Of a stretch of 64,000 nucleotides of DNA, positions 3,781 through 63,175 are shown one piece after another. Positions within the stretch are counted from its first letter, which is position 1. Each line of letters starts with the position of its first letter. This stretch comes from a phage. Where the stretch lies: sequence record OZ335960.1; one strand, given 5' to 3'. The notes under the pieces were generated by a model. The model did not search any database. It was given only the letters and a program-made list of their open reading frames with translations, and was not told where the DNA came from. The translations under genes were made by a program, and so were the position numbers.

Positions 3781-4089
3781 TTATTTACCAATAAATTGAA
3801 GCAAATGCTCAACTTTCATACCATTAACGGAAATCAATTTGTCAATAGAAAAACCTCGCCATGCACCGAGTTCAACATCAAATACTGGAATCATATCAGT
3901 AGATTCTTTCCGAGCAGATTCAGTCAATTTACCAGTTTGCATGGTTGGCATAAAGTCTGCATCGCGAGTACCTTTCATAGTACGAATAGTACCATCAGAC
4001 TTTTCAAAAACTACATTTGAAATACCCATGGACAATTTAGTTTTCAAAATTTCACGAATTGCTACTTTTTGTTCAGTCGTCAGTTTCAT
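3781..4089 (-). CDS. hypothetical protein (31.1 position)
   Basis: ORF track 102 aa. Confidence 0.5.
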   Translation of the reverse strand: MKLTTEQKVAIREILKTKLSMGISNVVFEKSDGTIRTMKGTRDADFMPTMQTGKLTESARKESTDMIPVFDVELGAWRGFSIDKLISVNGMKVEHLLQFIGK

Positions 4090-14801: not shown

Positions 14802-15030
14802 ATTGTTTTTCCGTTAAAACAGTAATATCATAGTAACAATCAGAAGAAGTTTTAACTGTGGAAATTTTATTATCAAAATACTCACGAGTCATTTTATGAG
14901 TATAATACTTTTTACCATAAATGATAATAGGTTGTTCTGGTCCTGGAACTTCTAACTCGCTTGGATTAGGAAGTGTAAAAAGAACGATACCAGAAGTATC
15001 CTTAAATCGTAAAATCATATATCCTCTCAA
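14755..15030 (-). CDS. hypothetical protein (nrdA.2 position)
   Basis: ORF track 91 aa; overlaps the next ORF start, so the true start may be internal. Confidence 0.4.
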
Positions 15031-15041
15031 TTAAATTAAAA

Positions 15042-15902
15042 TTACACCGCCATCTTTCCTTTCAAAACACCGTGGGACTGATAATCTTTGAGAACGAAAT
15101 CCCGTGCTGTCATATATTCAGTTAACCAATACATTTGAGTTTCAGTATCGCATTGACTGAATCCATTAGGCCAATTAATACTGAGTTTGCATAGATCCAT
15201 AGGAGTTCTATTTAATATCTCTTTGCATTGCTCAATATGGTTAGAATAAATGTGTGTATTACCACCAGAGAATACCAAATCGCCCGGAACTAGTTCACAC
15301 ATGTCAGCAACAATATGTAAAAGAGCAGCATAACTCGCGATGTTAAATGGAAGACCGAGGAAAACATCTACCGAACGTTGATACCATTGGAGGTCAAGGT
15401 ATCCGTTACGCACATTAAACTGATAGAACATATGACAAGGTGGTAATGCCATCTGCTTGAGTTCAGCTGGATTCCATGCCGACACAATTTGACGTCTATC
15501 ATTGGGAAATGTTTTAATACGATTAACAACTTCTACAATTTGATCTACACCACCAAAATCACGCCATTGTTTTCCGTAAATTGGACCAAGTTCACCGCTA
15601 TGATAACCTAGGTCTTTGGCCTGGTTTTCGTAGTTTTCATCCCAAATTGTTTTTCCTGCAATTAAAGATCCATGAGTACGTTGACGTAAATCATTTACGT
15701 TAGTACTTCCTGATAAGAACCACAATAACTCAGAAATACATGCATTCCAGGCGAGCTTCTTAGTTGTTACTGCAGGAAAACCTTTAGTTAAATCCCAGCG
15801 TAATTTAGTACCGAACAAAGCAATTGTTCCTGTGCCTGTTCGGTCATCGGTTTCATAGCCGTTTTCAAAAATGTCTTTAATTAAATCTTGGTATTGTTTC
15901 AT
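15042..15902 (-). CDS. td: thymidylate synthase, uninterrupted (no intron, no I-TevI)
   Basis: 286 aa continuous ORF with the ThyA active-site region (PPCH); T4 td is split by a group I intron, which is absent here. Confidence 0.95.
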   Translation of the reverse strand: MKQYQDLIKDIFENGYETDDRTGTGTIALFGTKLRWDLTKGFPAVTTKKLAWNACISELLWFLSGSTNVNDLRQRTHGSLIAGKTIWDENYENQAKDLGYHSGELGPIYGKQWRDFGGVDQIVEVVNRIKTFPNDRRQIVSAWNPAELKQMALPPCHMFYQFNVRNGYLDLQWYQRSVDVFLGLPFNIASYAALLHIVADMCELVPGDLVFSGGNTHIYSNHIEQCKEILNRTPMDLCKLSINWPNGFSQCDTETQMYWLTEYMTARDFVLKDYQSHGVLKGKMAV

Positions 15903-15946
15903 TTAGTACCTTATATAAATTATAATACATTTTATGAAGCTAATAA

Positions 15947-16294
15947 TCAATACGGTTTAGCATCAAATTTTCTTTCAATTTCAGGCGTAAAATATAATTC
16001 TTTACCACGCTTGGAAAAGCGACCAATAATATGATAATTATTCTCATCAAACGTGATATTGCCGATATCCATAGCTTTCAACCAAATATCGATATTTCTG
16101 TCAAGCTTTATATCAAAATTCCAATACGGAGAATTATTACCAAAAATACTACAAGCGGATTCAGTGAAACAACTGCTATAAATTTTGTCTTTAGGAACTA
16201 CTAATTGATAGACTCCTTTAATAAACTGAGGACCTTGCCATTTTGGTTGTTTCGCGTCTTTTTCTAATAGAATAGGATAATAATTAAAATTCAT
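15947..16294 (-). CDS. hypothetical protein inserted between frd and td
   Basis: Track ORF 119 aa from a GTG; likely ATG at 16294 (116 aa); occupies a junction where, as recalled, T4 frd and td directly overlap. Confidence 0.5.
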   Translation of the reverse strand: MNFNYYPILLEKDAKQPKWQGPQFIKGVYQLVVPKDKIYSSCFTESACSIFGNNSPYWNFDIKLDRNIDIWLKAMDIGNITFDENNYHIIGRFSKRGKELYFTPEIERKFDAKPY

Positions 16295-16314
16295 ATTTTC
16301 CGCCACGTGTTATT

Positions 16315-17141
<827 letters not shown>

Positions 17142-17149
17142 TTTATCTC

Positions 17150-17485
17150 CTAATATAAAGGATCGGGAACATATCCACTAGCTTTAATCATTTTAATTAA
17201 TGTTAACATTCCTTTATTAACTGCTAGTGAAATTTCATCAAAAACTTCATCACTAAAAAGTTCTAACACGCCCTTCTGAACTTTTAGTTTACAGCCAACA
17301 ATTTCGTCATCGCCTATAGTAAATTCGTTTCCGCCAATTCCACCGAAAAACTTAATTACGCCAGTTAACTGTCTTCCACGAGAATATGGGTCGTGCGATA
17401 AAGTAATATGAGTCACCCCAGGTACAGTTTTAAATTGGCAGCGGATGTTTACTTGAGCAATTCCAGTTACATGAATGTCAGACAT
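17150..17485 (-). CDS. hypothetical protein
   Basis: ORF track 111 aa. Confidence 0.45.
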   Translation of the reverse strand: MSDIHVTGIAQVNIRCQFKTVPGVTHITLSHDPYSRGRQLTGVIKFFGGIGGNEFTIGDDEIVGCKLKVQKGVLELFSDEVFDEISLAVNKGMLTLIKMIKASGYVPDPLY

Positions 17486-17495
17486 AATATTTTCC

Positions 17496-17738
17496 TCAAA
17501 CAGTCTTTTTCACAATTTTCCAATCAGCTTTAAACTGTTCAACATCAGAATGGTAAATCCAGAATCCTGCGCTTTCTCCATCCTCGTAAAGAGGGCATCC
17601 ATCACATTCATCTTCCCATCCCATGTCACGCAAAAGATGTTCAGCTTTTTCAACAAGTTCAGAATCTTTACCGATGATATTAAAATACCATTTACCTCTA
17701 ACTTCTGAATCTTTAATACTCTGGCGTTGTAATCTCAT
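17496..17738 (-). CDS. hypothetical protein
   Basis: ORF track 80 aa; early promoter at 17848-17876 upstream. Confidence 0.45.
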   Translation of the reverse strand: MRLQRQSIKDSEVRGKWYFNIIGKDSELVEKAEHLLRDMGWEDECDGCPLYEDGESAGFWIYHSDVEQFKADWKIVKKTV

Positions 17739-17847
17739 TTTATTCTCCTTAGCAAGCTTTAATCAAAAGATATAAACAGACCAACATAACTATTGCCATA
17801 ATATAAGGTGCGAACATTTTCTTTTCTCCATTAGTTTTGATAGGGTA

Positions 17848-17876
17848 ATAGTATCACACTACTACCCTTTTGTAAA
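17848..17876 (-). promoter_or_regulatory. T4-type early promoter
   Basis: Minus strand GTTTACA, 17 nt, TACTAT. Confidence 0.55.
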
Positions 17877-18263
17877 CTACTTTTTGAAAGTTTTTCGCAA
17901 AAGTTCAATGATTTCATCTACATTGTTTTCGTCAACAATGCAGTGAATTTTTGTCACGCCAGAAACTATACCTTCATTAGCGGATTGAGGCTTTTCTAAA
18001 GTTACCTCAGTAAAGTATTTGAATTCTTCAGAGTAAATCTCAAAATACGTCTCAAGTGGGCCACCCGCCATGTATTCAGTGCCATCTTCCATAGTTACAC
18101 GTACCACACATTCACCAGCACAATCATCACTTTCCATTTCATCTACAACAAAACTAGGCCCGTGCTTCTCTATTAAATTTAGCATCATTACATTGCAACG
18201 GCACTCGTTAGCAAAGTCATTTTTAAATAAAGGGTTAATGATATAAGTTTTTCCAACTTCCAT
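17877..18263 (-). CDS. hypothetical protein
   Basis: ORF track 128 aa. Confidence 0.45.
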   Translation of the reverse strand: MEVGKTYIINPLFKNDFANECRCNVMMLNLIEKHGPSFVVDEMESDDCAGECVVRVTMEDGTEYMAGGPLETYFEIYSEEFKYFTEVTLEKPQSANEGIVSGVTKIHCIVDENNVDEIIELLRKTFKK

Positions 18264-18307
18264 TTTGATTTCCTCATTTTAATAGGGGCTTGATAGCCCC
18301 TTGATAA

Positions 18308-21954: not shown

Positions 21955-24900
21955 ATGGCCGAGATTAAAAGAAAGTTCAGAGCAGAAGATGGTCTGGACG
22001 CAGGTGGCGATAAAATAATCAACGTAGCTTTAGCTGATCGTGCCGTAGGAACTGACGGTGTTAACGTTGATTACCTAATTCAAGAAAACACAGTTCAACA
22101 ATACGATCCAACTCGTGGATATTTAAAAGATTTTGTAATCATTTATGATAACCGCTTTTGGGCTGCTATAAATGATATTCCAAAACCAGCGGGAGCTTTT
22201 AATAGCGTACGTTGGAGAGCATTACGTACTGATGCAAACTGGACAACTGTTTCGTCAGGACCTTATCAATTAAAGTCAGGTGAATCAATTTCAGTTAATA
22301 CTGCAGCAGGAAATGATATCACATTTACTTTGCCAACTTCTCCAATTGATGGAGATACTATCGTTCTTCAAGATATTGGTGGAAAACCTGGAGTTAACCA
22401 AGTTTTAATTACCGCTCCAGTGCAAAGCATTGTAAATTTTAGAGGTCAGCAAGTACGATCAGTATTAATGACCCATCCAAAATCACAGATAGTTTTAATT
22501 TTTAGTAATCGTCTGTGGCAAATGTATGTTGCTGATTATAGCAGAGAAGCTGTAATTGTGACGCCAGCAAGTCTCTATCAGGCGCAGTCAAACGATTTTA
22601 TCGTACGCAGATTTACTTCTGCTGCTGCAATTAATATTAAACTTCCTAGATTTGCTAATCATGGCGATATTATTAATTTCGTTGATTTAGATAAATTAAA
22701 TCCTCTTTATCATACAATTGTCACGACATATGATGAAACAACTTCAGTACAAGAAGTTGGAACTCATTCTATTGAAGGTCGTACATCGATTGATGGTTTC
22801 TTGATGTATGATGATAATGAGAAATTATGGAGATTATTTGACGGGGATAGTAAAGCACGTTTACGCGTTATAACAACTAATTCTAATATTCGTCCAAACG
22901 AAGAAGTTATGGTATTTGGTGCGAATAATGGAACAACTCAAACAATTGAACTTCAGCTTCCGACCGATATTTCCATTGGCGATACTGTTAAAATTTCCAT
23001 GAATTACATGAGAAAAGGCCAAACAGTTAAAATAAAAGCTGCCGGTGAAGATAAAATTGCTTCTTCAGTTCAATTGCTGCAATTCCCAAAACGTTCAGAA
23101 TATCCACCTGAAGCTGAATGGGTGACTGTTCAAGAATTAGTTTTTAACGGTGAAACTAATTATGTTCCAGTTTTACAACTTGCTTATATCGAAGATTCTG
23201 ACGGAAAATACTGGGTTGTACAGCAAAACGTTCCAACTGTAGAAAGAGTTGATTCTTTAAATGATTCTACTAGAGCAAGATTAGGCGTGATTGCTTTAGC
23301 TACACAAGCTCAAGCTAACGTCGATTTAGAAAATTCTCCACAAAAAGAATTAGCAATTACTCCAGAAACATTAGCTAACCGTACTGCTACAGAAACTCGT
23401 AGAGGTATCGCAAGAATAGCAACCACTGCTCAAGTGAACCAGGACACTACATTCTCTTTTGCTGATGATATTATCATCACTCCTAAAAAGCTGAATGAAA
23501 GAACTGCTACAGAAACTCGTAGAGGTGTTGCTGAAATTGCTACGCAACAAGAAACTAATACAGGTACTGATGATACTACAATCATCACTCCTAAAAAGCT
23601 TCAAGCTCGACAAGGTTCTGAATCATTATCGGGTATTGTAACCTTTGTATCTACCGCGGGAGCTACTCCAGCTTCTAGTCGTGAATTAAATGGTACAAAT
23701 GTTTACAATAAAAACACTAATAATTTAGTTGTTTCGCCTAAAGCTCTGGATCAGTATAAAGCTACTCCAACACAGCAAGGCGCAGTAATTTTAGCAGTTG
23801 AAAGTGAAGTAATTGCTGGACAGAGTCAAGAAGGATGGGCAAATGCGGTTGTAACGCCAGAAACGTTACATAAAAAGACATCAACTGATGGAAGAATTGG
23901 TTTAATTGAAATTGCTACGCAAAGTGAAGTTAATACAGGAACTGATTATACTCGTGCAGTCACTCCTAAAACTTTAAATGACCGTAAAGCAACTGAAAGT
24001 TTAAGTGGTATAGCTGAAATTGCTACGCAAGTTGAATTCGACGCAGGCGTCGACGATACTCGTATCTCTACACCATTAAAAATTAAAACCAGATTTAATA
24101 GTACTGATCGTACTTCTGTTGTTGCTCTATCTGGATTAGTTGAATCAGGAACTCTCTGGGACCATTATACCCTTAATATTCTTGAAGCAAATGAGACACA
24201 GCGTGGTACACTTCGTGTAGCTACACAAGTTGAAGCTGCTGCAGGGACATTAGATAATGTTCTAATAACTCCTAAAAAGCTTTTAGGTACTAAATCTACT
24301 GAAGCGCAAGAAGGCGTTATTAAAGTTGCAACTCAAGTTGAAACTGTAGCTGGAACGTCAGCAAATACTGCTGTATCTCCAAAAAATTTAAAATGGATTG
24401 TACAGAGTGAACCTACTTGGGCAGCAACTACTTTGATAAGAGGTTTTGTTAAAACTTCATCTGGTTCAATTACATTCGTCGGTAATGATACCGTTGGTTC
24501 AACACAGTCATTAGAATTATACGAGAAAAATAGCTATGCAGTATCTCCATATGAATTAAACCGTGTATTAGCAAATTATTTGCCGTTAAAGGCAAAAGCT
24601 GCTGACACGAATTTATTGGATGGTCTAGATTCATCCCAGTTCATTCGTAGGGATATTGCGCAGACGGTTAATGGTTCACTAACCTTAACTCAACAAACGA
24701 ATCTGAGTGCCCCTCTTGTATCATCTAGTACTGCTACGTTTGGTGGATCAGTTTCGGCAAATAGTACACTAACTATTTCTAATACTGGAACAGCAACTAA
24801 ATTGATTTTTGAGAAAGGACCTCAAACTGGAACGAACCCAGCGCAGACGATGACTGTCAAAGTGTGGGGAAATCAATTTAGTGGGGAATCAGATACAACA

Positions 24901-25824
24901 CGTTCTACTGTATTTGAAGTTAGTGATGAAACGTCTAGTCATTTTTATTCTCAGCGCAATAAAGCTGGTAATATAACATTTAATATCAACGGTACAGTAA
25001 CTCCGATAAATGTTAATGCTTCAGGAACATTGAATGCAAATGGTGTAGCAACATTTGGTAATTCAGTCACTGCAAGTGGTGAAATTATTTCTCGAAGCGC
25101 AAATGCTTTCCGTGCTATTAACGGAAATTATGGTTTTATTGTTCGCAATGACGGGTCAGTAACGAATTTTATGCTTACTGCATCGGGCGATCAGACTGGT
25201 GGATTTAATGGATTACGTCCATTAACTATTAATAATGCATCTGGTCAAGTAACGATTGGTGAAAGCTTAATCATTGCCAAAGGTGCTACTATAAATTCAG
25301 GTGGTTTAACTGTTAACTCGAGAATTCGTTCTCAGGGTACTAAAACATCTGATTTATATACCCGTGCGCCAACATCTGATACTGTAGGATTCTGGTCAAT
25401 CGATATTAATGATTCAGCTACTTATAACCAGTTCCCAGGTTATTTTAAAATGGTTGAAAAAACTAATGAAGTGACTGGACTTCCATACTTAGAACGTGGC
25501 GAAGAAGTTAAATCTCCTGGTACATTGACTCAGTTTGGTAACACACTCGATTCGCTTTACCAAGATTGGATTACTTATCCAACGACTCCAGAAGCACGTA
25601 CCACTCGCTGGACACGTACATGGCAGAAAACCAAAAACTCTTGGTCAAGTTTTGTTCAGGTATTTGATGGAGGTAACCCTCCTCAACCGTCTGATATCGG
25701 TGCTTTACCATCTGATAATGCTACAATGGGGAATCTTACTATTCGTGATTTCTTACGAATTGGTAATGTTCGCATTATTCCTGACCCAGTGAATAAAACG
25801 GTTAAATTTGAATGGGTTGAATAA
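21955..25824 (+). CDS. 34: long tail fibre proximal subunit gp34
   Basis: 1289 aa; late promoter TATAAATA at 21913; near-identical to recalled T4 gp34 over long stretches. Confidence 0.95.
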   Translation: MAEIKRKFRAEDGLDAGGDKIINVALADRAVGTDGVNVDYLIQENTVQQYDPTRGYLKDFVIIYDNRFWAAINDIPKPAGAFNSVRWRALRTDANWTTVSSGPYQLKSGESISVNTAAGNDITFTLPTSPIDGDTIVLQDIGGKPGVNQVLITAPVQSIVNFRGQQVRSVLMTHPKSQIVLIFSNRLWQMYVADYSREAVIVTPASLYQAQSNDFIVRRFTSAAAINIKLPRFANHGDIINFVDLDKLNPLYHTIVTTYDETTSVQEVGTHSIEGRTSIDGFLMYDDNEKLWRLFDGDSKARLRVITTNSNIRPNEEVMVFGANNGTTQTIELQLPTDISIGDTVKISMNYMRKGQTVKIKAAGEDKIASSVQLLQFPKRSEYPPEAEWVTVQELVFNGETNYVPVLQLAYIEDSDGKYWVVQQNVPTVERVDSLNDSTRARLGVIALATQAQANVDLENSPQKELAITPETLANRTATETRRGIARIATTAQVNQDTTFSFADDIIITPKKLNERTATETRRGVAEIATQQETNTGTDDTTIITPKKLQARQGSESLSGIVTFVSTAGATPASSRELNGTNVYNKNTNNLVVSPKALDQYKATPTQQGAVILAVESEVIAGQSQEGWANAVVTPETLHKKTSTDGRIGLIEIATQSEVNTGTDYTRAVTPKTLNDRKATESLSGIAEIATQVEFDAGVDDTRISTPLKIKTRFNSTDRTSVVALSGLVESGTLWDHYTLNILEANETQRGTLRVATQVEAAAGTLDNVLITPKKLLGTKSTEAQEGVIKVATQVETVAGTSANTAVSPKNLKWIVQSEPTWAATTLIRGFVKTSSGSITFVGNDTVGSTQSLELYEKNSYAVSPYELNRVLANYLPLKAKAADTNLLDGLDSSQFIRRDIAQTVNGSLTLTQQTNLSAPLVSSSTATFGGSVSANSTLTISNTGTATKLIFEKGPQTGTNPAQTMTVKVWGNQFSGESDTTRSTVFEVSDETSSHFYSQRNKAGNITFNINGTVTPINVNASGTLNANGVATFGNSVTASGEIISRSANAFRAINGNYGFIVRNDGSVTNFMLTASGDQTGGFNGLRPLTINNASGQVTIGESLIIAKGATINSGGLTVNSRIRSQGTKTSDLYTRAPTSDTVGFWSIDINDSATYNQFPGYFKMVEKTNEVTGLPYLERGEEVKSPGTLTQFGNTLDSLYQDWITYPTTPEARTTRWTRTWQKTKNSWSSFVQVFDGGNPPQPSDIGALPSDNATMGNLTIRDFLRIGNVRIIPDPVNKTVKFEWVE
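23383..23600 (+). repeat. internal direct repeats in gene 34
   Basis: Identical 24-mer ACTGCTACAGAAACTCGTAGAGGT at 23383 and 23503; ATCATCACTCCTAAAAAGCT at 23473 and 23581; encode repeated TATETRRG and IITPKKL peptide motifs. Confidence 0.6.
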
Positions 25825-25832
25825 GAGGTATT

Positions 25833-26948
25833 ATGGAAAAATTTATGGCAGAGTTTGGACAAGGATATGTCCAAACGCCATTTTTATCGGAAAGTAATTC
25901 AGTAAGATATAAAATAAGTATAGCGGGTTCTTGCCCGCTTTCTACGGCAGGACCATATGTTAAATTTCAGGATAATCTTGTCGGAAGTCAAACATTTAGC
26001 GCAGGTCTTCATTTAAGAGTTTTTGATCCTTCCACCGGAGCATTAGTTGACAGTAAGTCATATGCTTTTTCGACTTCAAATGATACTACATCAGCTGCTT
26101 TTGTTAGTTTCATGAATTCTTTTTCAAACAACAGACTTGTTGCTATATTAACTAATGGAAAGGTTAATTTTCCTCCTGAGGTAGTATCTTGGCTAAGAGC
26201 TGCAGGAACGTCTGCTTTTCCATCTGATTCTATATTGTCAAGATTTGACGTATCATATGCTGCCTTTTATACTTCTTCCAAAAGAGCTATTGCATTAGAA
26301 CACGTTAAACTAAGTAATAGAAAAAGCACAGATGACTATCAAACTATTTTAGATGTTGTATTTGACAGTTTAGAAGACGTTGGAGCTACAGGATTTCCTA
26401 AAAGAACATACGAAAGCGTTGAGCAATTTATGTCAGCAGTCGGTGGAACTAATAACGAAATTGCACGTTTACCAACTTCATCTGCGATAAGTAAACTCTC
26501 TGATTATAATTTAATTCCTGGCGATGTTCTTTATCTTAAAGCGCAGTTATATGCTGACGCAGATTTACTTGCGCTTGGAACTACAAATGTATCAATCCGT
26601 TTTTATGATGAATCGAATGGATATATTTCTTCAACACATGCCGAGTTTACTGGACAAGCTGGGTCATGGGAATTAAAGGAAGATTATGTAGTTATTCCAG
26701 AAAATGCAGTAGGATTTACGATATATGCACAAAGAACTGCACAAGCAGGTCAAGGCGGCATGAGAAATTTAAGCTTTTCTGAAGTATCAAGAAATGGTGG
26801 AATTTCAAAACCTGCTGAATTTGGCGTCAATGGTATTCGAGTTAATTATGTCTGTGAATCTGCTTCACCTCCGGATATAATGGTACTTCCTACGCAAGCA
26901 TCGTCTAAAACTGGTAAAGTGTTTGGACAAGAATTTAGAGAAGTTTAA
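25833..26948 (+). CDS. 35: long tail fibre hinge (knee) protein gp35
   Basis: 371 aa; RBS AAGAGGT; follows gene 34. Confidence 0.9.
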   Translation: MEKFMAEFGQGYVQTPFLSESNSVRYKISIAGSCPLSTAGPYVKFQDNLVGSQTFSAGLHLRVFDPSTGALVDSKSYAFSTSNDTTSAAFVSFMNSFSNNRLVAILTNGKVNFPPEVVSWLRAAGTSAFPSDSILSRFDVSYAAFYTSSKRAIALEHVKLSNRKSTDDYQTILDVVFDSLEDVGATGFPKRTYESVEQFMSAVGGTNNEIARLPTSSAISKLSDYNLIPGDVLYLKAQLYADADLLALGTTNVSIRFYDESNGYISSTHAEFTGQAGSWELKEDYVVIPENAVGFTIYAQRTAQAGQGGMRNLSFSEVSRNGGISKPAEFGVNGIRVNYVCESASPPDIMVLPTQASSKTGKVFGQEFREV

Positions 26949-26979: not shown

Positions 26980-26987
26980 TATAAATA
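26980..26987 (+). promoter_or_regulatory. late promoter (TATAAATACTATT) for genes 36-37-38
   Basis: Exact TATAAATA with the extended late consensus, directly after the terminator. Confidence 0.6.
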
Positions 26988-27010: not shown

Positions 27011-27667
27011 ATGGCTGATTTAAAAGTAGGTTCAACAACTGGAGGCTCTGTCATTTGGCATCAAGGAAATTTTCCATTGAATCCAGCCGGTGACGATGTA
27101 CTCTATAAATCATTTAAAATATATTCAGAATATAATAAACCACAAGCTGCTGATAACGATTTCGTTTCTAAAGCTAATGGTGGTACGTATTTAAATAAAG
27201 TAATTTTTAATAAAGGAATGACTGTTCCTGGTGCAGGGTCAGGTGACAATGGTATTTTTGCTGGTCCTGGTGATAATGCCACGTATGATACTACAAATAT
27301 GGATATTGTTTCATGGTATGGTATTGGTTTTAAATCATCGCAGGGTTCAGCAGGTAGAACTGTAGTAATTAACACACGAAATGGAGATATTAGCTCAAAG
27401 GGTGTAATTGAAGCATCACAAATACGCGCAACTTCATTATCTCCAGTAAATAATTATGACCTTACGCGGAAAGATTATGTCGATGGAGCAATAAATATTG
27501 TTACAGCAAACGCAAACTCTAGGGTATTACGCTCTGGAGACACTATGACAGGTAACTTAACCGCGCCAAACCTTTTTTCACAGAATCCTGCATCTCAACC
27601 CTCACATGTTCCACGATTTGATCAAATTGTTATTAAGGATTCTGTTCAAGATTTCGGCTATTATTAA
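27011..27667 (+). CDS. 36: long tail fibre distal connector gp36
   Basis: 218 aa; late promoter at 26980 and terminator hairpin of gene 35 upstream. Confidence 0.9.
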   Translation: MADLKVGSTTGGSVIWHQGNFPLNPAGDDVLYKSFKIYSEYNKPQAADNDFVSKANGGTYLNKVIFNKGMTVPGAGSGDNGIFAGPGDNATYDTTNMDIVSWYGIGFKSSQGSAGRTVVINTRNGDISSKGVIEASQIRATSLSPVNNYDLTRKDYVDGAINIVTANANSRVLRSGDTMTGNLTAPNLFSQNPASQPSHVPRFDQIVIKDSVQDFGYY

Positions 27668-27675
27668 GAGGACTT

Positions 27676-29125
27676 ATGGCTACTTTAAAACAAATACAAT
27701 TTAAAAGAAGCAAAACCGCAGGAGCACGTCCTGCCGCTTCAGTATTAGCCGAAGGTGAATTGGCTATAAACTTAAAAGACCGCGTACTTTTTACTAAAGA
27801 CGACCAAGGAAATATCATTGATCTTGGTTTTGCTAAGGGCGGTAGTATTGACGGGAATGTTATTCATATAGGAAACTATAATCAAACTGGTGATTATACT
27901 TTAAATGGCACCTTCACTCAGACGGGTAATTTTAATTTAATCGGTATTGCTCGAGTAACTCGCGATATTATTGCCGCCGGGCAGATTATGACCGAAGGCG
28001 GAGAACTTATTACAAAAAGTTCAGGTACATCACATGTTCGTTTTTTCGATAGCAATAGCCGCGAGCGCGGAATCATTTATTCTCCTGCTAATGATGGATT
28101 AACTACACAAGTACTTAATATCAGGGTTCAAGACTACGCCGCTGGTAGCGAAAGCACCTATGCATTTTCAGGCAATGGCCTATTTACTTCACCTGAAGTA
28201 TCAGCATGGAAATCTATGTCAACTCCTCAGATTTTGACCGATAAAGTTATTACAGATGGGAAGAAGACAGGCGATTATGACATCTATTCATTAGCAAATA
28301 ACACTCCATTGGCAGAAAGCGAAACGGCTATTAACCACCTCCGTGTTATGCGAAATGCCGTAGGATCTGGTATATTCCATGAAGTTAAAGATAACGACGG
28401 GATAACCTGGTACGCCGGTGACGGATTAGATGCCTATCTTTGGTCGTTTACCTGGTCCGGTGGATTGAAAGCAGGCCATTCTATTTCTATAGGTCTTCCG
28501 GGCGGCTCTAAAGGATATTCTGAATTAGGGACTGCTTCGATTGCTCTTGGTGATAATGATACTTGGTGATAATGATACTGGTTTAGTCCATGGCGGTGAT
28601 GGCCGAATCAATATGGTTGCCAATGGTATACATATTGCAAACTGGGGCGCAGGCTATCAATCTCATCCTGGGCTTTGGGATTCAACCGGTGCTTTTTGGA
28701 CAGAAGTTGGAAGAGCTATCGTTTCTCATGGGCATCTCGTTCAGGCAAATGATAGTTATTCAACGTTTGTCCGTGATGTTTATGTCCGTTCTGATATTCG
28801 CGTTAAAAAAGACCTCGTTAAATTTGAAAATGCTTCTCAGAAGCTTTCTAAAATTAACGGTTACACTTATATGCAGAAGCGAGGCCTAGATGGAGAAGGT
28901 AATCAGAAATGGGAACCTAACGCTGGTTTAATTGCTCAAGAAGTTCAAGCTATTTTACCAGAATTAGTTGAAGGCGACCCTGATGGCGAAGCTTTACTTC
29001 GTTTGAACTATAACGGTGTAATTGGTTTAAATACAGCTGCAATCAATGAGCATACCGCAGAAATTGCAGAACTTAAATCAGAAATCGAAGAACTTAAAGC
29101 ATTAGTTAAATCGTTGTTAAAATAA
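27676..29125 (+). pseudogene. 37: long tail fibre distal subunit gp37, frameshifted by a 16-bp tandem duplication; C-terminal intramolecular-chaperone-like domain
   Basis: N-terminal frame 27676-28569 (297 aa, MATLKQIQFKRSK... conserved gp37 N-terminus) ends at TGA created by the duplication; the +1 frame continues LGDNDTGLVHGG... to 29125 and ends with an SDIRVKKD...GLIAQEVQ... domain. Confidence 0.7.
28547..28578 (+). repeat. perfect 16-bp tandem duplication (TTGGTGATAATGATAC x2) inside gene 37
   Basis: Copy 1 at 28547-28562, copy 2 at 28563-28578; creates in-frame TGA at 28567-28569. Confidence 0.9.
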
Positions 29126-29156
29126 TAAGAGGGGCTTCGGTCCCTTGGAGGTTTAT

Positions 29157-29951
29157 ATGGCAGTTGAAGGACCGTGGGTAGGATGGTCTGCAGTAGTTAA
29201 TACAGGACAAAATTGGATGGGTGGTGCGGCCCAACGATTAAGAATGGGCATTCCGTTCTGGATGAGTAATATGATAGGTCGATCCGTTGAAGTAATTCAC
29301 ACACTTGGAGCAGACCATAACTTCAATGGTCAATGGTTCCGAGATAGATGTTTTGAGGCAGGTAGTGCACCCATAGTGTTTAATATCACAGGAAATTTGG
29401 TATCATATTCTAGAGATGTTCCTTTATTCTTCATGTATGGAGATACACCAAATGAATATGTTCAGTTGAATATTAGCGGTGGAGCTCATATGTGGGGCAG
29501 AGGTGGACAAGGTGGGTGGACTCATTCTGGTGGAGATGGTAATGGTCAACAGGGTGGACATTGTATTCAAAATGACATTGGTGGTCGATTAAGAATTAAT
29601 AATGGTGGAGTAATTTGTGGCGGCGGTGGCGGCGGTGGCGGCATCGCTTATCGTCCTCACTCTGGTGCAAACTGGCAAGATATTGGTGGCGGTGGAGGAA
29701 GACCATTTGGCCCAGGAGGTGGCGGTGGTTATTCAGGAGGTGCTGCTTCTTATGACGGTCCAGGAGGCGGTTATAATTATGGTAATGCTCACTCTGGACA
29801 GGGTGGTGATGCTGGCGGAAATGGACAAAATGCCTGGTATGATGGTGGTAAAGTTCTAAAAGTTGGCGCTGGCGGGGCTGCAGGTTATGCTGTAATAGGG
29901 TCTGCTCCAACATGGCAAAATGTTGGAATAATATATGGTCCAAGAGTATAA
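29157..29951 (+). CDS. 38: T2-type receptor-binding adhesin gp38 with glycine-rich motifs
   Basis: Track ORF starts at TTG 29145; ATG at 29157 with GGAGG RBS gives 264 aa; conserved N-terminal attachment region then poly-Gly runs (GGGGGGGG, GGGGG) separating variable segments. Confidence 0.8.
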
Positions 29952-29982: not shown

Positions 29983-30639
29983 ATGGCAGCACCTAGAATA
30001 TCATTTTCGCCCTCTGATATTCTGTTTGGTGTTCTAGATCGCTTGTTCAAAGATAACGCTACCGGGAAAGTTCTTGCTTCCCGGGTAGCTGTCGTAATTC
30101 TTTTGTTTATAATGGCGATTGTTTGGTATAGGGGAGATAGTTTCTTTGAGTACTATAAGCAATCAAAGTATGAAACATACAGTGAAATTATTGAAAAGGA
30201 AAGAAATGCACGCTTTGAATCTGTCGCCCTGGAACAACTCCAGATAGTTCATATATCATCTGAGGCAGACTTTAGTGCGGTGTATTCTTTCCGCCCTAAA
30301 AACTTAAACTATTTTGTTGATATTATAGCATATGAAGGAAAATTACCTTCAACAATAAGTGAAAAATCACTTGGAGGATATCCTGTTGATAAAACTATGG
30401 ATGAATATGCAGTTCATTTAAATGGACGTCATTATTATTCCAACTCAAAATTTGCTTTTTTACCAACCAAAAAGCCTACTCCCGAAATAAATTACATGTA
30501 CAGTTGTCCATATTTCAATTTGGATAATATCTATGCTGGAACAATAACCATGTACTGGTATAGAAATGATCATATAAGTAATGACCGCCTTGAATCAATA
30601 TGTGCTCAGGCGGCCAGAATATTAGGAAGGGCTAAATAA
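29983..30639 (+). CDS. t: holin
   Basis: 218 aa; single N-terminal TM segment and large C-terminal domain; RBS AAGGAGGG. Confidence 0.9.
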   Translation: MAAPRISFSPSDILFGVLDRLFKDNATGKVLASRVAVVILLFIMAIVWYRGDSFFEYYKQSKYETYSEIIEKERNARFESVALEQLQIVHISSEADFSAVYSFRPKNLNYFVDIIAYEGKLPSTISEKSLGGYPVDKTMDEYAVHLNGRHYYSNSKFAFLPTKKPTPEINYMYSCPYFNLDNIYAGTITMYWYRNDHISNDRLESICAQAARILGRAK

Positions 30640-33367: not shown

Positions 33368-33408
33368 TTTCTAATCTCCGTAATTCTGTATCAGTAGTTG
33401 ATAGTTGT

Positions 33409-33437
33409 ATAGTACCACAGTATGCTTTGGTTGTAAA
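33409..33437 (-). promoter_or_regulatory. T4-type early promoter for motA (conserved cassette copy)
   Basis: Conserved cassette ...GGTTTACA...CTGTGGTACTATACAACTATCAACTACTGATAC... Confidence 0.6.
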
Positions 33438-36681: not shown

Positions 36682-36709
36682 TTTTCTGTTCCTCCGTAGT
36701 TGATAGTTG

Positions 36710-36738
36710 TATAGTACCACAGAGGAACAGTCTTGTAA
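36710..36738 (-). promoter_or_regulatory. T4-type early promoter (conserved cassette copy)
   Basis: Same about 45-bp conserved cassette, TTTACA-17-TACTAT. Confidence 0.6.
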
Positions 36739-36957
36739 ACAACTTTTTTAAAAATATTCGTAATAAATGTGAATACCAATCACTACTGCCGAAACTTGCG
36801 CAACCCACCACGCACAAGCAATAAGCACAGAATTCAAAATTTTCATAATAACCTCATTACAAAAGTAAATGTTAAACAAATTAATGGAATACTAATTAAC
36901 CAAACAAAACACCACCACAATGAACTCATAGTTCAATCTCAACGATTTTCATTTTAC

Positions 36958-37164: not shown

Positions 37165-37198
37165 TTTATTCTCCAAATCCGTATCAGTTGATAGTTGT

Positions 37199-37227
37199 AT
37201 AGTACCACAGTCCTTGTGGTATGTAAA
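37199..37227 (-). promoter_or_regulatory. T4-type early promoter (conserved cassette copy)
   Basis: Same conserved cassette, TTTACA-17-TACTAT. Confidence 0.6.
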
Positions 37228-38065: not shown

Positions 38066-38103
38066 AATTTTTCCTTAAAACAAAAGGGCCGAAGCCCCTT
38101 ATT

Positions 38104-38298
38104 TTATTTGAATTGTGCAATTCTTTTTTCTAAACAATCTGCGTAAGATTTCATTGAGATGAACTGTGAAAGCAGTAATTCTTGCTCAACTTCATTAATC
38201 GTTAGAAACTTTGTGCTTTCTAAAAATTTGCTCAGTGCATTAATTTTGAGCATTAATTGATCGTATTCTTCTTTTACTCGTGCTTGATAACCTAACAT
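38104..38298 (-). CDS. hypothetical protein flanked by UUCG hairpins
   Basis: ORF track 64 aa; GGGCC-UUCG-GGCCC type hairpins on both sides. Confidence 0.4.
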   Translation of the reverse strand: MLGYQARVKEEYDQLMLKINALSKFLESTKFLTINEVEQELLLSQFISMKSYADCLEKRIAQFK

Positions 38299-53815: not shown

Positions 53816-54150
53816 TCACAAGATGTAGATGAACAACTAGAATCACAAGAACTTCCACATGAATCGCCCGTCCATACATGAATAGGAACATTAGTGTCAT
53901 ATGAATCAGAACTAGACTGTGCATTCTGTGTATTAGATGATGTAGGTGTTGACCAGCGCCAAGGATTTTTATAATATTCCTGGGCTTCTTCATAAGTCAT
54001 AGTAACTGCTTCTACTGTTCCATCTCCCATATAAACATATTCAACTACAGTTAAAGGAAGGTAGTCATTTGAAATAGGAACTACACCTTCTCCGGGAGTT
54101 GTAGAGAAAAAATCCGTAAAGAAACTTTTAAACCAATTAAAGATAAACAT
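53812..54150 (-). CDS. hypothetical cysteine/serine-rich protein
   Basis: ORF track 112 aa; C-terminal [15 protein letters not shown]. Confidence 0.45.
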
Positions 54151-54362
54151 TACAAAAAGCCTCTTTGAAATTCGACTCTTTGAAATCCACCCCAGTCAGT
54201 GTATCGCATTTCAGCATTGAACTCGACTGAACCATCTGCATGCATCATGAATGAATGCGTGACGATATCACAATCCCAGCTTTTCATACCCCATTTATCA
54301 GAGATAGCTTTATCAAGAACCTTCTGGAGGTCTTCATTTGGTTTAATCCAGCGATTTAACAT
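54150..54362 (-). CDS. hypothetical protein
   Basis: ORF track 70 aa; consensus early promoter (TTTACT-17-TATAAT) upstream. Confidence 0.5.
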   Translation of the reverse strand: MLNRWIKPNEDLQKVLDKAISDKWGMKSWDCDIVTHSFMMHADGSVEFNAEMRYTDWGGFQRVEFQRGFL

Positions 54363-54388
54363 AGTGCTCTCCTCTATAAGATAATTCT

Positions 54389-54417
54389 ATTATACCATAC
54401 TCATTTTGGAAAGTAAA
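54389..54417 (-). promoter_or_regulatory. T4-type early promoter
   Basis: Minus strand GTTTACT, 17 nt, TATAAT (perfect -10). Confidence 0.6.
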
Positions 54418-54427
54418 CCGGTAAAAT

Positions 54428-54451
54428 GAAAAAGGACTCCCGAAGGAGTCC
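54428..54451 (-). terminator. rho-independent terminator downstream of soc
   Basis: Minus strand GGACUCC-UUCG-GGAGUCC followed by a U-run; same hairpin sequence as at 2398-2415. Confidence 0.6.
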
Positions 54452-54457
54452 TTGAAA

Positions 54458-54703
54458 TTATTCACCAGTTACTTTCCACAAATCTTCGTTTGCAGCAATC
54501 CATGCATCACGTTGATTTTCTTCGTATACTGTAGTATATGCTGCTTTTTCTGAAGGGAATATCTGATAATGAGCGCCAGAAATTTTGTGAACGTCAGAAT
54601 AAAGAGGGAAAGCTACAGAAATTTCTTTTCCTTCAATTTTCTTATTTCCATCTAATTTCTGCTCAAATGTTTTAATATTAACATAACCGCGAGTACTAGC
54701 CAT
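54458..54703 (-). CDS. soc: small outer capsid protein Soc
   Basis: 81 aa; matches recalled T4 Soc; late promoter TATAAATA upstream. Confidence 0.9.
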   Translation of the reverse strand: MASTRGYVNIKTFEQKLDGNKKIEGKEISVAFPLYSDVHKISGAHYQIFPSEKAAYTTVYEENQRDAWIAANEDLWKVTGE

Positions 54704-54733
54704 GTAATTCTCCTTTTATTTAAATTACATGAC

Positions 54734-54741
54734 TATTTATA
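54734..54741 (-). promoter_or_regulatory. late promoter (TATAAATA) for soc
   Basis: Minus strand TATAAATA about 25 nt before the soc RBS AAGGAGA. Confidence 0.55.
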
Positions 54742-54775
54742 ATAAATTCTCACAGCTTTTAAGCTGTCGTTTATA

Positions 54776-55294
54776 TTAATAACCTCGGTCTTGACGAGCG
54801 AAGTTTTCGGCATTTTTTAGATAATAAAGTTTAAAGATTTCTTCAGCCGTAAGACCGAGACTCTGGAACATGTTCAGAACGAAATGAAGAATATCAATCA
54901 TTTCAAATTTAATTTCCAACTGGTCTTGTGGAGATAAGTCAGTAATCAGAGTTTCACGACGTTCACCGTGTTGAGCTTTCCACGGCTTCCATACAGCAGA
55001 TGCATCTTTTTCGCCATTGCTCATACCACCAAGAGAAGTCAGTAGTTCGCGGAATTCATCATCAATATAATCTTTCTGATTACGCAGCCAATCAACAACT
55101 TCACCTGCGGTAGCCAAATCATCAGGATGACGGTTATATTCAGGTTTATCTTTAGCTAAACGAACCTGCAGAGATTTCTGCATATCAAGCATAACTTGCA
55201 GCGGATCTTTTTCATCACCGAGAATATCCCAGTATTCGTTTTGAGCTTTATCAGCGCCTTCAATCAGTTGTGAACATTCATTAAAGTAAGCCAT
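54776..55294 (-). CDS. 56: dCTP pyrophosphatase gp56 (MazG-like)
   Basis: Track ORF (GTG at 55387) trimmed to ATG 55294 with AAAGGA RBS giving 172 aa. Confidence 0.85.
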   Translation of the reverse strand: MAYFNECSQLIEGADKAQNEYWDILGDEKDPLQVMLDMQKSLQVRLAKDKPEYNRHPDDLATAGEVVDWLRNQKDYIDDEFRELLTSLGGMSNGEKDASAVWKPWKAQHGERRETLITDLSPQDQLEIKFEMIDILHFVLNMFQSLGLTAEEIFKLYYLKNAENFARQDRGY

Positions 55295-55365
55295 TATTTT
55301 TCCTTTCAATTCATGGGTTAGTAGATTAATTATACAATAAATATATAAAGCAATAAGGAGGACAT

Positions 55366-63028: not shown

Positions 63029-63062
63029 TTCATTCTCCAAATCCGTATCAGTTGATAGTTGT

Positions 63063-63091
63063 ATAGTACCACAGAGGAACAGTCTTGTAAA
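63063..63091 (-). promoter_or_regulatory. T4-type early promoter (conserved cassette copy)
   Basis: Same conserved cassette, TTTACA-17-TACTAT, upstream of the lipoprotein ORF. Confidence 0.6.
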
Positions 63092-63175
63092 CAGTTTTGT
63101 GAAAAAATTTTTAATGAATTTACAGGACCTAGAATCATCTATTTTTCTTAAGTATAGATTTATATTACTTGTATG

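Follow-up and report, generated by a model that had tools for sequence, protein, structure and literature searches.

A 16-bp tandem duplication splits gene 37 at the site of a missing shaft in a Tequatrovirus genome

The window analysed here is a 64,000-nucleotide (nt) stretch of phage DNA (sequence record OZ335960.1) from a Tequatrovirus (T4/T2-like) genome. Its flanks share 96–98% identity with numerous phages of E. coli and Shigella, and no record identical to it was found among the 50,697 phage genomes searched. We focused on the long-tail-fibre locus, in which the gene for the distal fibre protein gp37 is followed by that for the adhesin gp38. No single intact open reading frame (ORF) encodes gp37 in the window. 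Instead, the gene is split between frames 1 and 2 by a perfect 16-bp tandem duplication of TTGGTGATAATGATAC (nt 28547–28578), located where the shaft of the protein is missing. We give about an even chance to the reading that a real, extreme shaft-deletion allele underlies this sequence, the second copy of the 16-mer being an artefact.

Reading frames of gene 37 and the missing shaft

The order of the long-tail-fibre genes (gp34, gp35, gp36, gp37, gp38, and holin t) is syntenic with that of T4, and gp34, gp35, and gp36 are all present upstream of gp37 (Table 1). The 5' ORF of gene 37, with its stop codon at 28567–28569, encodes a protein with 95% amino acid identity to residues 1–296 of the gp37 of phage Ec_MI-02. 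The product of the 3' ORF has no gp36-joining part and is 88% identical to residues 711–900 of the same protein. Because the second copy of the 16-mer lies beside the first and adds 16 nt, the frame shifts by +1. A gp37 of about 477 amino acids (aa), as reconstructed in an earlier reading of this DNA from its letters alone (the sequence-only reading), is therefore not encoded; the window has ORFs of 297 and 194 aa in different frames, and 477 aa are obtained only by manual removal of one 16-mer copy. We refer to this product as repaired gp37 and use its numbering below. As written, the sequence would yield only a 297-aa fragment without the chaperone domain, and no long fibre could assemble.

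Table 1. Features of the long-tail-fibre locus and its flanks in the window
Feature	Position (nt)	Strand	Length	Remarks
Late promoter box	21913			precedes gp34; pattern match
gp34	21955–25824		1289 aa	
gp35	25833–26948		371 aa	
T4-type late promoter box	26980–26987	+		TATAAATA; 5' of gene 36; pattern match only
gp36	27011–27667	+	218 aa	small distal fibre subunit, intact; Pfam Phage_T4_gp36, E 7e-30; 100% aa identity to Ec_MI-02
gp37 5' ORF	27676–28569	+	297 aa	frame 1; conserved N-terminal part of distal fibre; ends ...SIALGDNDTW, then TGA TAA
gp37 3' ORF	28541–29125	+	194 aa from TTG; 189 aa from ATG 28556	frame 2; fibre tip and chaperone domain
16-mer copy 1	28547–28562	+	16 bp	TTGGTGATAATGATAC; left GDNDTG site, aa 292 of full-length gp37
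16-mer copy 2	28563–28578	+	16 bp	same as copy 1; right GDNDTG site, aa 715 of Ec_MI-02 gp37
Fibre-tip segment	28577–28789	+		TGLVHGGDG...FVRDVYVR; repaired residues 296–366; collinear with 6F45_A
Peptidase_S74 intramolecular chaperone	28790–29125	+	111 aa	SDIRVKKD...KSLLK (coding nt 28790–29122); C-terminal heptad-repeat helix
gp38	29157–29951	+	264 aa from ATG	T2-type adhesin; MAVEGPWVG...
Holin t	29983–30639			3' of gp38
asiA		opposite		beyond holin t in the listed locus order

The duplication stands alone in the window, in which no other perfect tandem duplication reaches 10 bp. About 115 other coding sequences (CDSs) were compared with those of Ec_MI-02, and each is in a single frame; we rejected general poor sequence quality as a cause, with gp37 alone being split. 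No Ns occur in the window, and the assembly passes normally through 30 further exact repeats of 16–44 nt. As these repeats are undisturbed, a contig break from a very small k-mer is also unlikely.

Two ways in which the gene might work as written were considered and rejected. The overlap of the two ORFs (28518–28569) contains neither a slippery heptamer nor an RF2-like CUU-UGA context, and the sequence ACT-TGG-TGA-TAA prevents re-pairing, arguing against programmed frameshifting or recoding. Separate expression of the 3' ORF, whose 189-aa product from ATG 28556 is like the S16 crystallisation construct, was rejected as a functional design since it lacks a late promoter box ahead of it and a gp36-joining part, and inspection of the 26 nt upstream revealed no obvious Shine-Dalgarno sequence. 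In the public record of another Tequatrovirus, vB_EcoM_005 (MK295203 / NC_055783), gp37 is annotated as two CDSs (protein P0002), and the tail of its 754-aa gp37 product appears to be out of frame (...NPNGEVNFISTRCCDVQ). Split gp37 genes thus occur in public records.

The duplication coincides to the base with a junction between distant parts of gene 37. Up to 28562 the window aligns with the Ec_MI-02 locus (L001) up to its position 3887, and from 28563 it aligns with L001 from 5141 onwards. Exactly the 1253 bp of Ec_MI-02 gp37 between the 16-mers are absent, and both copies are kept; counted with one repeat copy, the loss is 423 codons. The missing segment includes a Gp34_trimer-like domain (Ec_MI-02 aa 450–556) and leaves only 296 N-terminal residues before the tip, so that the window lacks the long shaft of T-even gp37 proteins. 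The complete homologues encountered in the analysis are 609–1312 aa long, the one comparable short protein being the metagenomic P0001 (477 aa; see below), and among those listed in a search of representatives at 50% identity, the complete ones that match across the conserved N-terminal region (~300 aa) have at least 670 aa.

The end points of the deletion are in-register direct repeats that code for the sequence GDNDTG. Both sites fall within a longer paralogous protein motif, LG.ASIA[LI]GDNDTG-x5-DG-x4-V-x-NG, and in the closest relatives, Ec_MI-02 and HY01, they are 1269–1305 bp apart (residues 292 and 715 in Ec_MI-02). We surveyed 13 full-length T2-type gp37 genes (900–1114 aa). Both motifs were present in 11 of the 13, with 10–18 nt of exact in-register DNA identity between them and a spacing that was always a multiple of 3 (1269–1896 nt). 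The 16-mer of the window occurred at both sites in none of these 11 genes, and at the left site in one of the 13 (WFK). The 16-mers were also considered as target-site duplications of a mobile insert; this was rejected, as the 1253 bp of the relatives are an in-frame shaft with a Gp34_trimer domain, and the membership of the 16-mers in the longer protein motif also counts against it.

Domains of gp37 and the gp38 adhesin

The first 60 residues of gp37 are identical to those of T4 gp37 at 55 positions, in agreement with the T4-like N-terminus noted in the sequence-only reading. That reading also proposed a C-terminal domain resembling the Peptidase_S74 chaperone, and our profile search bore this out: the last 111 residues match Pfam Peptidase_S74 (PF13884; 47.5 bits against a cut-off of 22, E 2.2e-12, repaired residues 367–426). 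Residues 283–477 of repaired gp37 align with chain A of Protein Data Bank (PDB) entry 6F45, a construct of the S16 gp37 tip and chaperone (E 8.8e-46). At the level of sequence, this match is decisive for the identity of the tip. The chaperone domain lies at the C-terminus, as expected, but is off-frame from the N-terminal 297 aa, and the two belong to the same polypeptide only if one 16-mer is removed. Within the C-terminal helix of the chaperone, a 21-bp unit occurs twice with 90% identity (29058–29098) and encodes AEIAELK and SEIEELK heptads.

The sequence SDIRVK (nt 28790–28807) is located at the N-terminal edge of the domain, where it conforms to the pattern S-D-x-R-x-K and aligns with S16 SDRRIK. 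Cleavage has been assigned to DLNVS^SDRRIKK in S16 and to DVYIR^SDGRLKI in fPS phages (PMC7917993). By analogy, gp37 is predicted to be cut between R366 and S367 (DVYVR^SDIRVK), and DVYVR, at the end of the tip segment, is the predicted gp38-docking strand. SDIRVK contains a candidate Ser/Lys dyad; a role for such a dyad in S74-type domains was reportedly described by Schulz et al. in 2010.

The gp38 gene begins 31 nt past the gp37 stop codon, immediately following a gp37 whose C-terminus is predicted to be cleavable. The program-made ORF list starts gp38 at TTG 29145 (268 aa), whereas homologues and the Pfam Gp38_N match begin at ATG 29157. The glycine-rich, T2-type gp38 described in the sequence-only reading was recovered by profiles for the adhesin body (PF05268, E 8.8e-68) and the N-terminal attachment domain (PF21721, E 6.1e-21), and the protein is collinear with the gp38 of PP01 (9V85_A, E 2e-72) and of S16 (6F45_D, E 2e-51). 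It contains 27% glycine, with six glycine-rich runs separating variable loops, and N-terminal tryptophans at positions 7, 10, 20, and 35 (W7, W10, W20, and W35). Glycine-rich motifs between variable segments are the known scheme of gp38 (PMC3157838). Identity to Ec_MI-02 gp38 is 95% in nucleotides and 96.6% in amino acids. The Gly8 run of one glycine-rich motif is encoded by a 9-bp unit (GTGGCGGCG) repeated 2.9 times (29617–29642). This tract is potentially slippage-prone; the Gly8 run is of equal length in Ec_MI-02 gp38.

These assignments bear on the proposal in the sequence-only reading that the locus is an intact, evolved compact module made by swapping in a new fibre tip. Repaired gp37 does combine an N-terminal joining part, a tip, and a chaperone, and it has a cognate gp38. 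There is, however, no intact ORF, and the difference from the nearest full-length relatives is 423 codons lost at repeats. Nothing was swapped in, as Ec_MI-02 has a tip and a gp38 of the same type; what is missing is the shaft. Nor do the S74 tail and gp38 set this locus apart, as the full-length gp37 proteins of the closest relatives (900–1114 aa) end in the same S74 tail and are paired with a gp38 of the same type. We consider a compact module of this kind very improbable. On the alignments, gp37 is short because the shaft between two repeats is missing in its entirety, and not because a new tip was gained.

Origin of the joint

Repaired gp37 is collinear with the S16 tip straight across the joint (S16, ALGSASIAIGDNDTGLRWGGDG; window, ELGTASIALGDNDTGLVHGGDG). 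Given this collinearity with a crystallised tip, the fusion recreates a natural sequence context.

The same joint was found once more, in a metagenome. Protein P0001 is a 477-aa, in-frame gp37 with 88% amino acid identity, end to end, to the repaired window protein, and it was the sole protein covering repaired gp37 end to end in a collection of 5.8 billion sequences. Its gene is carried by a 165,631-bp scaffold (CHIN23-1_SAMN13279041_METAG-scaffold_47, ENA ERZ28583736; L004), on which the surrounding 21.4-kb stretch has no Ns and the gp34, gp35, and gp36 neighbours are normal. The metagenomic gp37 has the length of the repaired protein, the same domain content, and a joint between the same motifs. 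It differs in being in frame with a single repeat copy, whereas the window has both copies and a broken frame. Nucleotide identity between the two is 86–88%, the right site on L004 is of the FL08/HY03 type, and the L004 gp38 is a different, PP01-like protein of 239 aa. P0001 is also listed on a second contig of 20–50 kb, its protein sources being Logan and ENA. The Logan assembly was built with 31-mers. If the second contig is a Logan assembly, a repeat of ~20 nt could not create the join, which argues that the allele was present in the reads.

The metagenomic in-frame allele at the same joint supports a real short allele, as do the collinearity with the S16 tip, the in-register repeats of 11 of the 13 relatives, and the shaft deletions that arise in evolved PP01 (see below). 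We take the deletion in the window to be real and to have been carried by at least a fraction of the phages sequenced. The duplication itself we read as an artefact, because it is the sole tandem duplication of its size, falls exactly on the joint, and is accompanied by clean CDSs elsewhere. With their overlapping flanks included, the copies match exactly across 18 nt, which modestly favours one physical sequence written twice. Two abutted copies fit an unmerged in-silico join or an ambiguous consensus, and no recombination mechanism known to us.

A real deletion with an artefactual second copy would have arisen as follows. Recombination between the two GDNDTG-coding repeats would delete the shaft of gp37. 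The resulting allele would encode a 477-aa precursor and a mature fibre subunit of 366 aa (compared with ~790–1000 aa), giving a much shorter distal half-fibre. The second 16-mer would then have been introduced at the joint in joining or consensus calling, either because contig ends overlapping by the repeat were abutted instead of merged, or because the aligner placed a repeat-flanked deletion ambiguously. Trimerisation of gp37 from the C-terminal S74 chaperone, established for S16 and T2, would apply here as well. The chaperone would next cut itself off at R366^S367, and the exposed DVYVR strands would dock the N-terminal, tryptophan-bearing domain of gp38, whose glycine-rich core would present hypervariable loops to an outer-membrane receptor protein, all by analogy with the tip mechanism of S16 and T2 (PMC7917993, PMC12892980, PMC3157838).

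Several results weigh against this reading. Recombination between direct repeats leaves one copy, and the window keeps two; the artefactual route to the second copy is one that we infer. Two abutted copies are equally expected if the middle of a full-length gene dropped out and the contigs on its two sides were set end to end. Each half of the window gp37 shows higher nucleotide identity to full-length Ec_MI-02 (93.8% and 90.5%) than to the short allele on L004 (85.6% and 88.4%); two real deletions would imply that the joint formed on two occasions or has recombined since. The contiguous joint occurred in none of the 233 matching cultured-phage records. Searches of IMG/VR, JGI metagenomes, and GTDB genomes with the duplicated joint and with a degenerate in-frame joint pattern yielded no further short alleles, and no protein records matched the 297-aa, 194-aa, gp38, or gp34 products of the window. 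The one IMG/VR match to the right flank (L003) was of the ordinary full-length type. Two protein searches say little about how common short alleles are: a junction-centred search gave three candidates and missed P0001 itself, making it uninformative on this point, and a search of representatives at 50% identity merges P0001 into a cluster of 1103 aa, leaving short alleles uncountable there.

The chief rival is pure misassembly, in which an ordinary gp37 of ~900–1100 aa lost its variable middle and the flanking contigs, the left one ending with the 16-mer and the right one beginning with it, were concatenated; strain-level variation that broke the assembly at the edges of conserved blocks is a possible cause. 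Both repeat copies are kept and abutted with the frame broken, and the conserved N- and C-terminal blocks of gp37 end and begin at these very motifs; in most phages the match to the query either starts at position 888/890 or stops near aa 312. The proximity of the gp37 halves to full-length alleles, and the absence of the short form from cultured phages, point the same way. Such an origin nevertheless appears unlikely to us, in view of the lack of Ns, the normal assembly of the 30 other repeats, the intactness of every other gene, and the occurrence of the same joint, in frame, in an independent genome. Moreover, the left 16-mer equals the right one, and this 16-mer was seen at the left site in just one of the 13 full-length genes. 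The sequence-only reading had itself allowed that a close homologue might reveal a long internal gp37 segment to be missing through misassembly; close homologues do reveal such a segment, although in our reading a real deletion is the more probable cause.

Alternatively, the sequence may be accurate, with a real deletion and a real 16-bp duplication (or an unusual blunt join) making gp37 a pseudogene in a defective or minority genome; the particles would be fibre-less and non-infective unless complemented. The window is otherwise clean, de Bruijn assemblers should not invent k-mers absent from the reads, and frameshift mutations in T4 classically include short tandem duplications. Against this, two events must coincide to the base with the repeat boundaries, and a random duplication would fall on the joint about once in 10^3–10^4 cases. 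In addition, the flanking microhomology available for slippage is only 2 nt (CT), a lytic T4-like phage with a broken gp37 could not propagate alone, and the ORF overlap offers no recoding site. We therefore regard an accurate sequence as improbable. A speculative extension, in which the 16-nt tandem repeat is a readily reverting off-state of a switch that turns fibre production on and off, strikes us as scarcely credible.

Returning to a real deletion carrying an artefactual second copy, its wider implication is that essentially shaft-less T-even distal half-fibres exist and that recombination at the two GDNDTG motifs generates them repeatedly, a proposition whose chances we put a little short of even. 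In such a form, 296 N-terminal aa would be joined directly to a 70-aa gp38-docking tip and the chaperone, both in the window and in a diverged metagenomic phage with a different gp38. The S74/gp38 architecture and shaft-length polymorphism by deletion are already known; what would be new is a shaft-less allele of 477 aa, an extreme form with one other instance. If so, the length of the distal fibre can approximately halve while the joining region, tip, chaperone, and gp38 dock are kept, which bears on how fibre length tunes adsorption and baseplate triggering, on recombination hot spots in tail-fibre genes, and on a minimal scaffold for host-range engineering. If the joint is instead an assembly artefact, this gp37 should be neither annotated nor employed as a compact fibre, and assemblies of hypervariable fibre genes have to be verified against the reads. 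Above all, the analysis serves as a warning that the gp37 of the window is no intact compact fibre.

Genomic surroundings and comparison with known fibre tips

The late promoter box at 26980 probably drives transcription of g36-g37-g38-t. The late-box pattern had seven matches in the window compared with 8.9 expected by chance, and hence the argument for this box is its position and not the count; no match of the pattern in the window falls within gp37 or ahead of gp38.

Other parts of the window are more diverged. Two patches (~15000–18300 and 54150–55300) depart from Ec_MI-02 far more than the 97–100% background, with amino acid identities of 81% for td, 85% for frd, 41% for one ORF, 54% for soc, and 71.5% for dCTPase, and several small Ec_MI-02 ORFs have no counterpart in the window. 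By their sequences, these patches look like regions of mosaic replacement. Exact repeats of 25–44 nt with the core AGTTGATAGTTGTATAGTACCACAG occur at 33394–33420, 36696–36741, 37168–37211, and 63032–63093. They are apparently intergenic and adjoin early genes, and they may be shared early-promoter or regulatory cassettes as in T4-type phages (compare PMC2839356). There are also two pairs of identical, GC-rich 24-nt palindromes (1521–1544 and 38086–38109; 2393–2416 and 54429–54452), one with an A/T run after it and one with an A/T run before it (GGGCCGAAGCCCCTTATTTTATTT; AAAAAGGACTCCCGAAGGAGTCCT). These look like duplicated intrinsic terminators.

Among known systems, the locus most resembles the T2/S16-type tip, whose S16 structure (PDB 6F45; Dunne et al. 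2018) is summarised in PMC7917993 and PMC12892980. Common to both are the S74 domain, the R/S^SDxRxK motif, the tip from GDNDTG onwards, and a gp38 with a tryptophan domain and a glycine-rich core; the gene order g36-g37-g38-t is also the same. In its domains the locus is an ordinary T2-type fibre-tip module: the pairing of S74 and gp38 is textbook for T2 and S16 (PMC7917993, PMC3157838, PMC12892980) and recurs in hundreds of Tequatrovirus genomes. The S16 gp37 has 749 aa and T2-type gp37 proteins of E. coli phages have 900–1114 aa, whereas that of the window is shorter and split over two frames.

The nearest relatives are Ec_MI-02 (OP856590) and HY01 (KF925357), which have identical synteny and the same S74 tail. 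Nucleotide identity to the window on either side of the joint is 94–96% for Ec_MI-02 (93.8% and 90.5% over the two gp37 halves) and 87–93% for HY01. Unlike the window, both have extra sequence between the GDNDTG sites (1253 bp and ~1289 bp, respectively), including the Gp34_trimer-like domain. Their gp37 proteins, of 900 aa (L001 3001–5703) and 912 aa (L002 3001–5739), are in turn shorter than the 1075–1114 aa of most T2-type Tequatroviruses, and the lineage of the window may have been shaft-shortened already before the larger loss.

Internal deletions of T4 gene 37 were reportedly engineered by Hyman, Valluzzi and Goldberg in 2002. Evolved lines of PP01 acquired gp37 shaft deletions of ~580–690 bp within two to three passages in four of four lines, with improved adsorption, and HY01 has a natural gp37 deletion similar to these (PMC6027323, Akusobi et al. 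2018). As in the allele of the window, the PP01 deletions retain the N-terminal joining part and the receptor-binding tip and cut the shaft internally, and the phage is viable and faster-adsorbing. The PP01 deletions lie upstream of the right GDNDTG site and take out ~20% of the gene. In the window, by comparison, nothing is left of the shaft between the motifs, a difference of 1253 bp from Ec_MI-02 and of ~1.9 kb from 1103-aa forms; if real, such an allele would be the extreme natural counterpart of the faster-adsorbing shaft-deletion forms selected in PP01.

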